16,039 bases of DNA from a virus (taxonomy: Duplodnaviria; Heunggongvirae; Uroviricota; Caudoviricetes): the IMG/VR virus record IMGVR_UViG_2681813230_000004; one strand, 5' to 3'. Made by a program: the position numbers and the translations under genes. Below are positions 2,144-11,289 of the stretch, in pieces. Positions within the stretch are counted from its first letter, which is position 1, and every line of letters begins with the position of its first letter. Below the pieces are notes generated by a model that was not told where the DNA came from, searched no databases, and saw only the letters and a list, made by a program, of their open reading frames with translations.

Positions 2144-2299
2144 TTACTCCTCAGGTTCGTAAGCTGTGAAGACAGCGACCTCCGTCTGGCCGGTTCGGAT
2201 TCGTACCTCGCAGAGGTCTTTCCTCGTTACCAGTGCCGTCACTATGACGGTTAAACAGATGACGATCAGGGCGATTAACATCGCCTTTTGCTGCTTCAT
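2144..2299 (-). CDS. hokD: HokD (RelF) type I toxin, 51 aa
   Basis: Hand translation of the reverse complement gives MKQQKAMLIALIVICLTVIVTALVTRKDLCEVRIRTGQTEVAVFTAYEPEE, a Hok-family sequence. Below the ORF-track size cut-off. Confidence 0.85.
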   Translation of the reverse strand: MKQQKAMLIALIVICLTVIVTALVTRKDLCEVRIRTGQTEVAVFTAYEPEE

Positions 2300-2370
2300 A
2301 GCCTGCTTCTCCTGTCAACGCAAAGCAGAAGTGTCACCTTCGGTGCGAAACAGAGATGTCATGCTTTGGT

Positions 2371-2658
2371 TCAGAGAATGCGTTTGACCGCCTCGCTATA
2401 TACTTCCGAGCGTTCTCTTTTCCCAACAGAAATCACGAAAACGACAACTTTCTCGTCTATAACCTGGTATACAAGGCGATAGCCTGAAGACCGGAGCTTA
2501 ATCTTGTAACAATCAGGCATACCACGGAGCTTGTTTGCTTCAATCCGGGGTGACTCAAGTACTTCAACCAGCTTCTTTTTCAACTGTTCACGTACCGTCG
2601 AGCCCAGCTTTCGCCATTCCTTTAGTGCCCGCTCGTCAAAATCCAGAAAATACGCCAT
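2371..2658 (-). CDS. relE: RelE mRNA-interferase toxin (95 aa)
   Basis: Translation MAYFLDFDERALKEWRKLGSTVREQ...VISVGKRERSEVYSEAVKRIL matches RelE. Confidence 0.9.
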   Translation of the reverse strand: MAYFLDFDERALKEWRKLGSTVREQLKKKLVEVLESPRIEANKLRGMPDCYKIKLRSSGYRLVYQVIDEKVVVFVISVGKRERSEVYSEAVKRIL

Positions 2659-2897
2659 CAGAGTTCATCCAGCGTCACACGTACTGGCTTAGGATTACGA
2701 AGCCGTTCTTTCACTATCTCCACAAGTTCAGCATCTTCATCACTCAGGAGTGTCTGTTTGAACGGCAAGCGTTCATTGTCAGCGATATACTCGAGCATGA
2801 GACGAAGCGCTTCAGAAGGAGTTACACCCATTTTTTCAAGCGCGGCGTAAGAACGCGCTTTAAGTTCATCGTCAATACGCAGGTTAATGCTACCCAT
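2658..2897 (-). CDS. relB: RelB antitoxin (79 aa)
   Basis: Translation MGSINLRIDDELKARSYA...PKPVRVTLDEL matches RelB. Its stop overlaps the relE start by 1 nt. Confidence 0.9.
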   Translation of the reverse strand: MGSINLRIDDELKARSYAALEKMGVTPSEALRLMLEYIADNERLPFKQTLLSDEDAELVEIVKERLRNPKPVRVTLDEL

Positions 2898-2908
2898 GTC
2901 TTACACCT

Positions 2909-2934
2909 CTTGTAATTACAAATGTCATTACAAG
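2909..2934 (-). promoter_or_regulatory. relBE operator/promoter region (relO-like dyad repeats)
   Basis: CTTGTAATTACAAATGTCATTACAAG lies immediately upstream of relB and contains repeated TTGTAAT/ATTACAA half-sites. RelB/RelE autoregulation at such a site is established. Confidence 0.55.
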
Positions 2935-3227
2935 TATCGCACTACAACATGCTTAGGGCAAGTCACGAAGGAAGTCAGAAAGTAGTCGTAAGAACGGTGA
3001 TCACTGTCCGCTTTGTGCCAGGAGCAGCCATTGCTAAGTCCATCCTGTATTGTGCAGGTCAGCTCGTTTTTAAAGAGTCCGGCCATCATCTTACTGGTAC
3101 AGACACCATATACTTTGTGACGGTCAGGCTACATATGCACAACTCAACTTATTCATCTATTTTTTGCTTTAGCATGTCAGTGTTGCTTTCTCGTCGGCGG
3201 GTGAGCGGTGACCTGACCTGTCGATAA
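2922..3227 (+). CDS. ydfV: YdfV-like hypothetical protein (101 aa)
   Basis: 101-aa ORF between relB and flxA, the position and length of K-12 ydfV. Its start codon lies inside the relO dyad, so coding status is uncertain. Confidence 0.35.
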   Translation: MSLQVSHYNMLRASHEGSQKVVVRTVITVRFVPGAAIAKSILYCAGQLVFKESGHHLTGTDTIYFVTVRLHMHNSTYSSIFCFSMSVLLSRRRVSGDLTCR

Positions 3228-3379
3228 AGGAACGTAGCACGTTTTATGCAACACCCGCATGCGGCAGAAAATTATTGCCGAACGTTTACCCCTGTCAACA
3301 AGCTTTACTTTCTGAGGCGCGCCAGCCCGCGAGGAAAACAATCTGAACATCAAACAATTAATGACACAAGAAATACGAT

Positions 3380-3406
3380 TAAAGATTTTTTTGTGCATGC
3401 CGATAG
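3380..3406 (+). promoter_or_regulatory. sigma-28 (FliA)-type promoter of flxA
   Basis: TAAA (3380..3383), a 15-nt spacer, then GCCGATAG (3399..3406), against the consensus TAAA-N15-GCCGATAA. It sits about 24 nt upstream of the flxA ATG, which is preceded by AGGAG. Confidence 0.6.
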
Positions 3407-3429
3407 TGCTTTTTTAAAAGGAGAAATCT

Positions 3430-3762
3430 ATGTCTGTCACAATTCAGGGAAATACCTCAACCGTTATTTCAAACAACTCCGCCCCGGAAGGAACATCAGA
3501 AATAGCCAAAATCACAAGACAAATTCAGGTGCTGACTGAAAAGCTTGGGAAAATCTCATCGGAAGAGGGGATGACGACACAGCAGAAAAAAGAAATGGCT
3601 GCATTGGTACAGAAGCAAATTGAAAGCCTCAGGGCTCAACTGGAGCAGTTGTTAAGGCAGCAGGCAGAGAAAAAGAATAAAGACGCGACAGTTCAGCCTG
3701 ATAAAAAAGAAGAGAAAAAAGACGATACAAATACCGCTGGCACCATTGATATTTACGTCTAA
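3430..3762 (+). CDS. flxA: FlxA (FliA-regulated prophage protein, 110 aa)
   Basis: Translation MSVTIQGNTSTVISNNSAPEGTSEIAKITRQIQ...GTIDIYV matches FlxA. Confidence 0.85.
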   Translation: MSVTIQGNTSTVISNNSAPEGTSEIAKITRQIQVLTEKLGKISSEEGMTTQQKKEMAALVQKQIESLRAQLEQLLRQQAEKKNKDATVQPDKKEEKKDDTNTAGTIDIYV

Positions 3763-3776
3763 GTGACAGCCGTATT

Positions 3777-3799
3777 GTGGCCCTCATCGGGCCACTTTT
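3777..3799 (+). terminator. Rho-independent terminator after flxA
   Basis: GTGGCCC-TCATC-GGGCCAC hairpin followed by TTTT, starting 15 nt after the flxA stop. Confidence 0.6.
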
Positions 3800-4198
3800 C
3801 GCCATCAGCCTTTTCTTTAAAGACATATTATCTTTGTATCATTTCTGATAGTTAACATTACAAGATATAAGTAATGGACGCACTCCCAATTAGTCTATTT
3901 AAATCGCCACGAGTTTAACTGACAACCCATGATCAATTATGAATTGCAACTATTTCTGTAGTCACTTTTGTGGGGACAGTCCACAAAACTGCCAACTTCC
4001 GCTTCTTGCTCTTAGCGGACATTAGCATAGGCTATTTACCATAACGCCTCATTACGCGCACCGCCCAGACTGACTCAGCGCGTTTCTGGCATATCCCCGG
4101 TAAAACAAGTAACAAACCACCCGAAAATGAACACCAGAAACGCGACTTAAGAATCTACCCTATGAATGGATATGCACTCAACCGAATCGATCTTGGTT

Positions 4199-5540
4199 TC
4201 AATCTTTTTTATCGGGATCAGGCTTCTTTTTAGGTAACTTCGGGGGCTTAACTTGCTGATGACTTTGCGTTCGGCGCGTAAGCCAGGGATGGTCAGCTTT
4301 AGGTTTAACATAGTATTTTGAGCGTAAATCAATACGGGCATTATCCACTCGTTCATGGACACTCTTTTCATCATCCAGTGGTATAGGCTCCGGGCCATCA
4401 ACATACTTTTCCCAGCCCAGCGCTTTCCCGTCATACAGAACGTTAATTTCACCGTCAAAGTTCTCGCATACAGTAACAACCGAATGCCTAAGTCGATATC
4501 CCCGGCCCTCACTGCGTACCTGAAACGCACTGCTTTTGTACTGGAAAGTGAGATTTTTAGACAGAACGCGCTTCGCCTGTAGGCTGAAGATATAACCCAG
4601 TTCCTCTTCAGAATGGTGCACATCAAGATGAGCATTATCAGTAGTACGAGGCGACGTAGCGAACCGGTTGTTATAGGCTTCAATAAAGGTCGGCAACCAT
4701 GCATTTGCTGTTTCAATATCACTGATATTCTGAAGCCGCATTTCTTTGACCAGCCTGTCCTGTAGTGTCTGATTGGCGCGCTCTACCCGCCCTTTTGCCT
4801 GCGGGCTGTTGGCATGGATTGGCTCGATGCCCAGTGTCTTTATCGCACGAGTGAACTGGGTCAGCTCACCTTCCCGCTCTGGGTTATTTACCCTGAATAT
4901 ACTGTGTCTATCAGAGTAGAGAGCGAGCGGTACGCCATGATCATTAAGGTAACCCCGGAGGGTTTCCATGTAAGCCCGGGTTGTTTCAGCAGGCACAAAA
5001 CGCAACGCCATCAACGCACTGGTGGCATCATCAATGAAAACGATCAGTGTACATCTGGGGCCTCGATTTTCAAACCAGTCATGAGGTGAGCCATCAATCT
5101 GGATCAGTTCACCGTAAGATGGTCGTCGCATGCGGCGTTGATATATACGGGCAATTTTACGACGGCGTTCACGCCATACCCCCCTCTTCTATCATCCACT
5201 TTCTGAGAGTTTCAACGGATAAAGATAAACCGTGTATCTCGCGCAATTTTTCGCACGCAAACGTAGGTCCAAAATCAGCGTAACGGCCTTTGAGGAGTGA
5301 AATTACTGTTGCTCTGAATTCAGTAGAAAAGGAATTATTAGGACGCTTTCCACGTCGGTGGGAAACCAGACCAGAAGGCCCTTCATTTCTATACCGTTGC
5401 ACCAGACGTTTAACCTGCCGAATAGAAATGCCAATGCGTGCCGCAGCTTGTTCCTGAGTAATATGTCGATTAATTGACTCCTGAATAATCTGAAGTCGGT
5501 GGAGTTCCTTATGACTCATCGTAACAGTTTCTTTGGTCAT
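4199..5540 (-). pseudogene. rve (DDE integrase-core) transposase-like gene, IS481-like, split into a 123-aa HTH part (5169..5540) and a 310-aa catalytic part (4199..5131)
   Basis: The N-terminal ORF has an HTH-like segment (ITQEQAAARIGISIRQVKRLVQRY). The C-terminal ORF has integrase-core signatures (LYSDRHSIF; PQAKGRVERANQTLQDRL). Both are on the minus strand in frames offset by +1, and the offset sits at a G6 run (plus-strand C6 at 5179..5184). Removing one G would give a single ORF of about 440 aa. Confidence 0.65.
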
Positions 5541-5874
5541 GAAAAATCCCCCAGAGAATTGTCTGGGGACATTTTAGAATGGTTCAAAGGGGACATTACA
5601 GCTTGGTGTTAACAATAGCCTGCTTCTCCTTGCCTTTCGGCACGTAAGAGGCTAACCTACATGTGTCTGGCATGAAATTGGCCTCAGATTAATGTTAAGC
5701 GTCTTGCAGGACGCGTAATGTTAACTGGGGCTTTTCTCTACCTGCCGTTGGTGTTCGTGCCCGAGGCAGATAGCCTCAAGCACCCGCAGTCATTCTACTT
5801 AACTAAGATTTCCCCGCAAACCGTTTTTGTCCAGCACAGTAAATATCCAACTAAACCAATGGAGTTCGCTGTAT

Positions 5875-6054
5875 TTACCGCCAGTATTCAATGCACATGA
5901 CCGCCATGAACACCCCTAAAAAAAGGGCATTTATATATCCAAATATTAATATCAAAACATCAACTTTTTCCATATACCTTGCTGTGAAGATGATGGGCAT
6001 ACATGATGCGAACAACCAGAACGCAACAAACAAAAACTGCAATGCGTTTTTCAT
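5875..6054 (-). CDS. hypothetical small membrane protein (59 aa, two predicted hydrophobic helices)
   Basis: ATG at 6054 is preceded by a perfect AGGAGG 4 nt upstream. Translation MKNALQFLFVAFWLFASCMPIIFTARYMEKVDVLILIFGYINALFLGVFMAVMCIEYWR is strongly hydrophobic. It lies in a visibly AT-rich stretch. Confidence 0.4.
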   Translation of the reverse strand: MKNALQFLFVAFWLFASCMPIIFTARYMEKVDVLILIFGYINALFLGVFMAVMCIEYWR

Positions 6055-7206
6055 TATTCCTCCTACAATCAATGTGCAATTACATTTAAACACACCTCAA
6101 TTTGGCCGGACATATAAATATCTAAACCAGAAAAAATCACTTACATAGCGTTACAAACTCTTTAGTCTAAAGGTTCATCGTAAAACATTCCCCATACTTA
6201 TCAGTCCGTTCCGCGCCAGGTAGCTCATTGCCTTATCTGGCAACCTGTAATCAGGTTTCCGCTTTTTCAGTTGGCTGGTCGTTTAACCGACATAGTTAAC
6301 CCATTAATCTAGTTGCCGGATGTTGGTGGATTTTCGCGTTTTAGTTGTTCATAAAAGTGCACAGCTTTAACCAATTCTTCTGATGTAACCGGGACTGGTG
6401 AGGCAGTGAATAAGGCCTGAATTTGATAGTTCGGCCTGTCGTTACAATCCTCTTTTTTCGGTACATATTTCCAGTCACCAGACCACTACTTCCCCTGAAA
6501 GTCCGTAACGCCTTTTTTCACGTAGCGATATCGCCATGTCACTGGTTTTGCTTGCCCCGCCGTTTCATGCCCTTCCTGATAATTAATCTCGCTCATTCAT
6601 CGCCCCACTCATCACAATATGCTTCGACCGGAGTTTTTCCCGCTTCATAGTCATCACGCTAGGATTCGACATCAGCAGCACTTCCACCGCGTAACTCACC
6701 ATAGTCCATTAATAGTTCATCCCGCTCTTCAAAACTGATGTTATATTTAGCTGAACAAAAATCAGCCACTTTGTTCTTCCTCATCGTCTTTTATTTCGTG
6801 GTATGAGTAATTGCAGTAGTTAAAGAAAATTTCTTATGCTCCGTCATGAATTTCATCAGGTGTTGCGTCATCGTCCACTTCGAATACATCCTCAAAATCT
6901 CCACCAGCTATTCCCGTTTCAATAATAATTTTGAACTTTCGCATTTCACTACCGCCCTTTCGGGCGGCCTCCTGATGTTCTGAGGGTGCAGAAATCCATC
7001 CGGTTAAGGATTAAGTTTTATTTACAGAACTGAATTTAATTATTCAGATATACGTATCTGTAACCTTACGAATCTACTCACTGGATGCCTCTTTCATAAA
7101 AATAATCCAGTGGGTTTTATCGTTTTTTCCCTGTTCGTTGACAGATAACAGGCTTTCTATCTGTCAGTGCCAGAATCTGGCTTACCGGTATTTGCGTTTC
7201 ATTCCA

Positions 7207-8988: not shown

Positions 8989-9490
8989 AATTCCATCCAG
9001 CTTTTTGTTGGTATTGCTGTCGATACGCAAGCTTGAAAGCAATTGCTTTTTCTATAAGTTCGTCAGTTTCACGATCCACTACGGCAGGATCAGCAAAAAG
9101 CAGTCCGGACTCCACCACATCGCCATATTCTTTGTTTAACCCGGCGATCATGCACGTGATGCTTTTTCCGTCAGTAATTTCACGATACAACCTGAAATCA
9201 CTAATCCGGATAGCCTCCATAATCGCAGGCACTAGCGCCGTGAACTTTTCACGCTTATCCCTGGTGTCGATAGCCTTCCAGCGTTCGAATATCTTCACTC
9301 GATTAACACCAAGCGCTCGCTGATCAACCGCGCCACCTTCATCTGTGACACGCTGAACATCGATGTTCGGGCGCTCTTTCAAAGCCCAGAATGCTTCAGT
9401 GATTAATATCGTCGCCTGCTCCTGTGTCATTCCTGGTCGACATATCCAGGCATCCAGAGCCTCACGAGCCTGTTCAGGAGTGATTTTCAT
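8969..9490 (-). CDS. hypothetical phage early protein (173 aa), in the cII/YdaT position
   Basis: ORF immediately downstream of the dicC-like gene and upstream of the replication gene, same strand. No motif recognised. Confidence 0.45.
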   Translation of the reverse strand: MKITPEQAREALDAWICRPGMTQEQATILITEAFWALKERPNIDVQRVTDEGGAVDQRALGVNRVKIFERWKAIDTRDKREKFTALVPAIMEAIRISDFRLYREITDGKSITCMIAGLNKEYGDVVESGLLFADPAVVDRETDELIEKAIAFKLAYRQQYQQKAGWNYEPSFC

Positions 9491-11231: not shown

Positions 11232-11289
11232 TTTCTGGTGACGTTTGGCGGTATCAGTTTTACTCCGTGACTGCTCTGCCGCCCTTTTT
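11232..11289 (+). ncRNA. dicF: DicF small regulatory RNA (ftsZ-targeting sRNA)
   Basis: TTTCTGGTGACGTTTGGCGGTATCAGTTTTACTCCGTGACTGCTCTGCCGCCC followed by TTTTT matches the DicF sequence from memory, in the expected position between ydfC and dicB. Confidence 0.8.

Follow-up and report, generated by a model that had tools for sequence, protein, structure and literature searches.

A probable gene for a small two-helix membrane protein beside hok/sok in Qin/Kim-type prophages of Escherichia coli

The locus and its small open reading frame

The DNA considered here, a 16,039-nucleotide (nt) stretch of viral sequence (IMG/VR record IMGVR_UViG_2681813230_000004; hereafter the window), is a Qin/Kim-type lambdoid prophage of Escherichia coli. 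The region tested is identical to E. coli IAI1, in which the neighbours are annotated as dicA, dicC, dicB, relBE, hokD, flxA and ydfW, and the presence of the DicF small RNA confirms the Qin/Kim identity of the prophage. Our subject is an unnamed open reading frame (ORF) on the minus strand, ORF59, which runs from an ATG at 6054-6052 to a TAA stop at 5877-5875 and encodes a product of 59 amino acids, MKNALQFLFVAFWLFASCMPIIFTARYMEKVDVLILIFGYINALFLGVFMAVMCIEYWR. An earlier note on this DNA, made from the letters alone, had pointed to a hydrophobic 59-residue ORF with an AGGAGG Shine-Dalgarno (SD) sequence 4 nt from its ATG, and direct reading of the sequence bears this out. The AT-rich surroundings that it described are equally real, since positions 5851-6150 have a GC content of 0.363, the lowest of any 300 nt in the window (0.466 overall). 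The coordinates of the features discussed are collected in Table 1.

The earlier note had placed ORF59 directly beside a transposase remnant and had seen no obvious partner ORF. Neither statement holds, because a hok/sok leader intervenes between ORF59 and the remnant. This leader lies about 90 nt past the ORF59 stop in 87/87 related loci with enough sequence to judge (all of the lineage found in the window, lineage A). Intact hok follows 258-260 nt downstream in 45 of these 87 loci, 41 are interrupted as in the window, where an insertion has moved the hok coding sequence (CDS) by 3.3 kb, and one carries a hok that fails the intact-length test. A putative hok promoter may be placed between the ORF59 stop and the hok mRNA by analogy with the 5' end of that mRNA; it was not among the calls of the consensus scan.

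In phages that have decayed less (vB_EcoS-813R8 and vB_EcoS-640R1) and in many prophages, the genes follow one another on one strand in the order dicC, ydaT/cII-like, O, DUF977, variable small genes, ORF59, hok/sok, (rem), ydfU, rusA and Q, and phages L003 and L004 likewise carry ORF59 on the strand of dicC, O and Q. The upstream neighbours of ORF59 vary between loci; the downstream spacing to hok/sok is fixed. A consensus scan, which also missed the hok promoter, found no promoter-like site ahead of ORF59. No terminator was found between ORF59 and either the upstream genes or hok, the first on that strand being the hok terminator. Nor does any Rfam family overlap ORF59 or any promoter-like site for an antisense RNA appear on the opposite strand, in a scan that is insensitive and that novel RNAs would escape. 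In the window itself ORF59 is a relic: the genes upstream are pseudogenes, and the hok neighbour is split by a relBE-carrying insertion.

At 95% identity or more, the lineage-A ORF59 stretch is present in 1,568 of 5,426 complete E. coli genomes (~29%), and we counted it at 1,629 places in E. coli genomes. The relatives returned by a word-seeded search all come from E. coli or Shigella, many of them frameshifted, often at a run of seven T residues (T7), and a scan of species-representative genomes did not find ORF59 outside these two groups. Carriers of ORF59 or its lineage-B relative (described below) include the uropathogenic and commensal strains CFT073, ABU 83972 and ST131, of which the last two have lineage B. 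K-12 lacks the locus, so small-protein mapping in that strain could not have caught ORF59.

Annotation of ORF59 is sparse and inconsistent. RefSeq (Prokaryotic Genome Annotation Pipeline) annotates it in none of 52 sampled rows (40 of lineage A, 12 of lineage B). Older GenBank entries call it a 'hypothetical protein', mostly of 72 amino acids from an upstream GTG, and in one or two sources it goes under 'membrane protein' or 'uncharacterized membrane protein', with no name, family or function attached. The same protein is found in UniRef/GenBank as A0A1Q9L2W4_ECOLX (lineage A, the 72-residue call) and A0A2S5RMW9_ECOLX (lineage B).

Table 1. Features of the ORF59 locus and of the related loci discussed in the text (positions are those of the window unless another record is named)
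Feature	Position	Strand	Description and basis
ORF59	5875..6054	minus	59 codons; predicted two-transmembrane helical-hairpin inner-membrane protein; from sequence, ORF list and comparison with relatives
Shine-Dalgarno AGGAGG	6059..6064 (read 6064-6059)	minus	4-nt spacer 'aata', then the ORF59 ATG; read from sequence
T7 homopolymer	5918..5924	minus	Codons 44-46; frameshift hot spot at which frameshifted protein variants diverge
Putative hok promoter	5792..5819	minus	TTGCGG 5819-5814, 16 nt, TAGAAT 5797-5792; ~7 nt ahead of the Rfam leader start
hok/sok leader	5614..5785	minus	Full-length sok family match; Rfam, 99.8 bits, E 5e-22
Direct repeat copy 1, GGAGAAGCAGGCTAT	5615..5629	minus	hok SD through the first two bases of the hok ATG; putative target-site duplication
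Transposon-like insertion, 3.3 kb	2313..5614	minus	Imperfect terminal inverted repeats; flanked by 15-bp direct repeats
Direct repeat copy 2, GGAGAAGCAGGCTAT	2298..2312	minus	Immediately before and overlapping the hokD ATG
hokD (relF) CDS	2144..2299	minus	Annotated in the identical IAI1 locus; displaced toxin gene, originally after the leader at 5614-5785
Decayed upstream neighbour, phrog_660-type	6175..6596	minus	Pseudogene, frameshifted and with an internal stop; intact versions match PHROG
DicF small RNA	11233-11284	plus	Rfam, 76.7 bits
Lineage-B ORF	L095 4001-4180; L096 (ABU 83972) ~6150-6330		ttcA locus, B2-type E. coli
Opposite-strand ORF in phage records	L002 4907-5158; L003 4907-5164; L004 4907-5158	minus	Annotated in place of ORF59

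Coding signature of ORF59 in two lineages

The composition of ORF59 is specific to its frame. T occupies 53% of second codon positions, 37% of first and 24% of third positions, GC at third positions is 51%, and the other five frames, unlike this one, give no hydrophobic product. We searched 1.84 billion representative proteins exhaustively with phmmer and obtained a single distant relative, itself of 59 amino acids and 41% identical across residues 1-59, which we call lineage B. A profile search built on the two lineages added no third. Lineage B occurs as a single chromosomal copy in 1,045 of the 5,426 E. coli genomes (~19%), ABU 83972 and ST131 among them. Its surroundings are a prophage relic at ttcA of which almost nothing is left, with an integrase fragment on one side and a decayed metal-transporter permease on the other. 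The ORF is intact there amid pseudogenes (the integrase fragment, a DUF1627 fragment, half a hok and the permease, which is frameshifted), and the 3' end of the phrog_660-type gene found upstream of ORF59 is retained upstream of it too. The lineage-B ORF of the IMG/VR contig L095 is closely preceded by the cdtABC toxin genes.

The ORFs of the two lineages align over 180 nt with zero indels at 59% nucleotide identity; gaps are required in both flanks. Identity at codon positions 1, 2 and 3 is 58%, 71% and 47%, respectively (position 2 versus 3, Fisher p = 0.014), and the Nei-Gojobori estimates of non-synonymous (dN) and synonymous (dS) divergence are 0.45 and 2.13, a ratio of ~0.21 obtained from a single lineage pair with dS saturated. 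When unconstrained substitution was simulated 20,000 times to an equal divergence, the frame was kept with its start and stop in 0.3% of runs, and an amino acid identity of at least 41% was reached in 0.55%. From these patterns we conclude that ORF59 is, or recently was, protein-coding, and it is most likely a real gene.

The comparison also bears on where translation starts. The GTG-extended start of 72 amino acids, the usual GenBank call, was rejected: it has no SD, and lineage B has no in-frame start codon upstream. Because of the latter, 59 amino acids is the conserved product, and the usual 72-residue start is probably wrong. The 'perfect' SD of the earlier note stands for the window, where AGGAGG is present, and fails as a general description, since the site reads AGGGGG in 20/90 related loci and the lineage-B ORF has only AGG with an 8-nt spacer. 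The predicted minimum-free-energy fold of the mRNA leaves the ORF59 SD unpaired, and in stability the 5' region does not exceed shuffled controls (z = 0.08). Conserved RNA structure was accordingly rejected as an explanation for ORF59, as the shuffled controls fold equally well.

An ORF of 85 amino acids is open on the opposite strand (5891-6148, plus), and three GenBank phage records annotate it in place of ORF59, two as 'hornerin' and otherwise as 'hypothetical protein'. We rejected this candidate, which is polar, of low complexity and closed in all three antisense frames of lineage B; judged by its sequence, the call is probably a mis-call.

Variation within the lineages gives a different picture from the deep comparison. 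In a first allele sample, chosen by tblastn score and hence biased to intact copies, variable sites numbered 5 in the 180 nt of ORF59 versus 58 in 407 nt of flanks (Fisher p = 9e-6). This was replaced by a sample anchored on the non-coding flank and hence independent of ORF quality, in which the 59-codon frame is intact in 114 of 115 viral contigs. In the protein collection, variants P0019, P0021-P0025 and P0028 are frameshifted, diverging at the T7 run of ORF59. The run was considered as a programmed phase switch and rejected because lineage B has no such run.

Several observations weigh against reading ORF59 as a functional gene of the early operon, and we set them out together. In the lineage-A polymorphism sample of 207 sequences, duplicate contigs included, ORF59 has 11 polymorphic sites, every one of them non-synonymous, and in lineage B the corresponding counts are 2 non-synonymous and 0 synonymous. 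Ongoing purifying selection is thus not in evidence, and the gene may be subject to drift in cryptic prophages; the shallow variation is what a segment of recent spread, drifting in mostly cryptic prophages, would show. An excess of synonymous change, the absence of which the earlier note had named as a refutation, is accordingly missing within lineage A, whereas the pattern between lineages is coding-like. The protein collection contains many frameshifted ORF59 alleles. Two lineages are all that exist, and the deep comparison therefore draws on one pair, in which dS is saturated. The promoter scan is of limited sensitivity, and ORF59 may have a promoter of its own. Finally, no family, structure or paper offers a functional lead, and the role proposed below is drawn from location and protein features alone.

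The predicted protein and its possible roles

The ORF59 protein has two hydrophobic segments (residues ~4-24 and ~33-55) and a grand average of hydropathy (GRAVY) of 1.27, with charges confined to the N-terminus (K2), the loop (R26/E29/K30/D32) and the C-terminus (E56, R59). AlphaFold predicts helices at residues 2-26 and 28-58 (predicted local distance difference test score, pLDDT, 74), in agreement with the two-helix membrane protein that had been proposed and for which prediction of transmembrane (TM) helices had been suggested as a check. Nineteen positions are invariant across the two lineages, including W13, S17, C18, P20, I21, I22 and T24 in helix 1 and L36, F38, G39, N42, A43, L44, E56, W58 and R59 in helix 2 and the tail. 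We infer that the protein would be inserted with its N- and C-termini both in the cytoplasm, because of the N-terminal K2 (R2 and K3 in lineage B), the short loop, which is acidic in lineage B, and the C-terminal R59. A conserved small and polar face of helix 2 (G39, N42, A43, G47) may pack the hairpin together with W13, S17, C18, P20 and T24 of helix 1, and the same conserved residues probably mediate self-association or binding to a host membrane protein.

Searches of Pfam, PHROGs, NCBIfam and PADLOC returned no family for ORF59 (in PADLOC, none at E <= 1), consistent with the earlier remark that the ORF matched nothing recognisable. Sub-threshold matches to TIGR03647 (E = 0.03, 14.5 bits versus a cut-off of 26) and phrog_6298 (E = 0.12) appeared for lineage B only, and both were dismissed as generic TM similarity. 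A sequence profile search of the PDB gave no match, Foldseek against BFVD and the PDB gave generic hairpins only (all E > 0.9), and a full-text literature search for the peptide found no paper.

On balance, and by a small measure, we favour the explanation that ORF59 is a genuine, unnamed gene for a 59-residue two-helix inner-membrane protein of the early operon, with a dispensable accessory role at the membrane. In Qin/Kim-type lambdoid phages of E. coli and Shigella, the place of ORF59 would be in the nin-like region that separates the replication genes from Q. Because it points the same way as the early rightward operon (dicC/cro, ydaT/cII-like, O, ... Q), and because neither a promoter nor a terminator specific to it was detected, its transcription is probably shared with that operon upon derepression or infection. 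Its product may act as a dispensable accessory factor at the inner membrane, in phage development or in phage-phage conflict, and this is the least certain step; exclusion, interference of the abortive-infection type or interference with a host membrane protein can all be imagined, and ORF59 would not be an essential phage function. T4 Imm, a small phage-encoded inner-membrane superinfection-exclusion protein, offers an analogy of kind only: like it, ORF59 would be a short, non-essential, early-expressed, predicted inner-membrane phage protein, and no sequence or family relationship between them was detected in PHROGs or Pfam. ORF59 is most likely an ordinary phage orphan gene, a narrowly distributed member of the familiar class of small phage membrane proteins. 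If real, it is another small membrane protein overlooked by standard annotation, in ~29% (lineage A) and ~19% (lineage B) of complete E. coli genomes, and its fixed position beside hok/sok makes it a cheap candidate for testing of phage exclusion or membrane phenotypes.

The toxin, holin-like and exclusion roles that had been suggested for this ORF have no direct support. We rank the possible roles with dispensable development or conflict functions foremost, then a kil-type or toxin activity, then a partnership with Hok, and place a holin and a fortuitous ORF last. A kil-type or type I-toxin-like protein, a growth inhibitor whose expression from the early operon would depolarise or permeabilise the inner membrane, is unlikely, though the most probable of the alternatives. 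The product is small and strongly hydrophobic, as its GRAVY value indicates; the G39/A43/G47 face with the polar N42 is of the kind used in helix packing, which may extend to oligomers; another membrane toxin, hok, adjoins it; and frequent frameshift alleles would be expected were leaky expression costly. Neither lineage matches a toxin family in Pfam, NCBIfam or PADLOC, however, and the two TM helices of ORF59 set it apart from the type I toxins known to us, which have one. The insensitive scan described above found no overlapping antisense RNA family or promoter, and the ribosome-binding site is strong and unpaired (with the fold no more stable than shuffled controls), in contrast to the sequestered site of hok-type toxins. 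The frame is, moreover, intact in nearly all of the flank-anchored viral contigs without an evident antitoxin, and also in the relic in which everything around it has decayed. The Hok/Gef toxins of the adjoining hok/sok loci invite comparison. Both are genes for small hydrophobic inner-membrane peptides of lambdoid prophages, where hok is reportedly enriched (bioRxiv 10.1101/2025.08.07.668861), and the two are physically linked. ORF59 differs in having no sequence similarity to Hok and two TM helices against the one of Hok. It also lies outside the hok mRNA and does not overlap hok, since the leader starts beyond its stop with the putative promoter between, and no overlapping mok-like frame, antisense RNA (within the sensitivity of the scan) or sequestered ribosome-binding site was detected for it.

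That linkage raises a somewhat less probable idea, in which ORF59 would be a functional partner of hok/sok, forming a two-gene membrane module that tunes the insertion or toxicity of Hok, or acting as a second effector in Hok-mediated abortive infection. The spacing to the leader and to the hok ATG is fixed throughout the lineage-A loci while the upstream neighbours vary, and since the lineage-B ORF, 41% identical at the protein level, also has the 3' half of a hok gene after it, the adjacency is ancestral. If true, such a module would give the type I hok/sok system its first described protein partner. Yet E. coli genomes have related sok leaders at 9,352 places versus the 1,629 of ORF59, and prophage hok loci of O157:H7 and of B strains lack ORF59, their homology beginning only at the hok promoter. 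Because most hok/sok loci are without ORF59, hok/sok works without it; in lineage B, conversely, hok is destroyed and the ORF intact, and linkage over ~90 nt suffices to explain the adjacency. ORF59 is thus co-inherited with hok/sok yet separable from it, as hok/sok also occurs without ORF59. We give slightly less credence again to the possibility that ORF59 is not a gene but a frame left open by chance in the AT-rich, T-skewed spacer that precedes the hok promoter, where linkage would have kept it. Such a frame would fit with the silence of RefSeq in all of the sampled rows, the lack of synonymous polymorphism in either lineage, the setting among pseudogenes, the tendency of T-rich strands toward hydrophobic translations and the ORF open on the other strand. 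Against this stand the frame-specific composition, the survival, without indels and with unchanged start and stop, of a 59-codon frame in which 41% of nucleotides differ (simulated probability ~0.003), the greatest divergence at codon position 3, an SD in both lineages and an opposite-strand ORF that is not conserved. Least credible of all, and in our view very improbable, is a lysis protein of the class II (two-TM) holin or pinholin-like kind. ORF59 resembles phage 21 S, a class II holin/pinholin of 68-71 amino acids, in its two TM helices and similar size, and shows a weak, non-significant structural likeness to phage holins (E = 3.0 and 6.2). It differs from phage 21 S in genomic place, charged C-terminal tail and family match. 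ORF59 lies in the nin-like region upstream of ydfU, rusA and Q, whereas the lysis cassette is beyond Q (essQ-ydfR-rrrQ-rzpQ in K-12 Qin); no endolysin is adjacent; its C-terminus, ...IEYWR, has only E56 and R59 charged and so lacks a highly charged tail; and there is neither a conserved dual start nor a holin match in Pfam or PHROGs.

The relBE-carrying insertion and minor features

The interruption of hok in the window can be followed to its ends. Phage L003 has the same leader element followed by intact hok; in the window the alignment of the leader breaks off immediately after ...GGCTAT, and at the hokD junction the sequence, beginning with the SD, equals that of intact hok loci. The 3.3-kb unit occupies precisely the interval from the hok/sok leader to the hokD CDS and contains a frameshifted ISEsa1/IS1202-family transposase (4199-5540; helix-turn-helix and rve domains), flxA, ydfV, relB and relE; its terminal inverted repeats match at 22 of 30 positions. 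The insertion is the one present in 41/87 related loci. Judging from the arrangement of the repeats and junctions, it looks like a transposon-like unit that brought relBE with it and inserted at the hok ribosome-binding site. Such an insertion would explain why hokD follows relBE without an adjacent sok/mok leader in the window and in IAI1, and the analysis thereby offers a concrete origin for the odd relB-relE-hokD order of the Qin prophage. We found no paper describing this origin in the searchable literature. ISEsa1 itself is listed as 1,609 bp, without detectable target duplication, in a paper on the IS1202 family (PMC10132070).

In the Qin prophage of K-12 MG1655 (L100, 1647174-1647636), ydfX directly abuts ydfW, which corresponds to the 3' end of the transposase reading frame. 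K-12 has therefore lost the stretch with ORF59 and the hok/sok leader; relative to the window, the replication genes, the nin-like genes and most of the transposase are gone from it too.

Some smaller features lie upstream of ORF59. Just past the stop of the upstream gene is a 13-nt palindrome, CTTTAGACTAAAG, at 6160-6172 on the minus strand. The lineage-B version, CTTCAGTCTGAAG (L095 ~3876-3888), carries a symmetric double change that keeps the palindrome, and the outermost pair is lost in 42/90 lineage-A loci; from its sequence, it could be a protein-binding site, a small hairpin or a product of chance. Within the decayed upstream gene, the window and IAI1 share a 57-nt insertion (6258-6314) relative to phages L003 and L004 and to CFT073 (L009). 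Beside this insertion stands a terminator-like hairpin on the plus strand (6242-6257), with a T-rich tail to ~6267.

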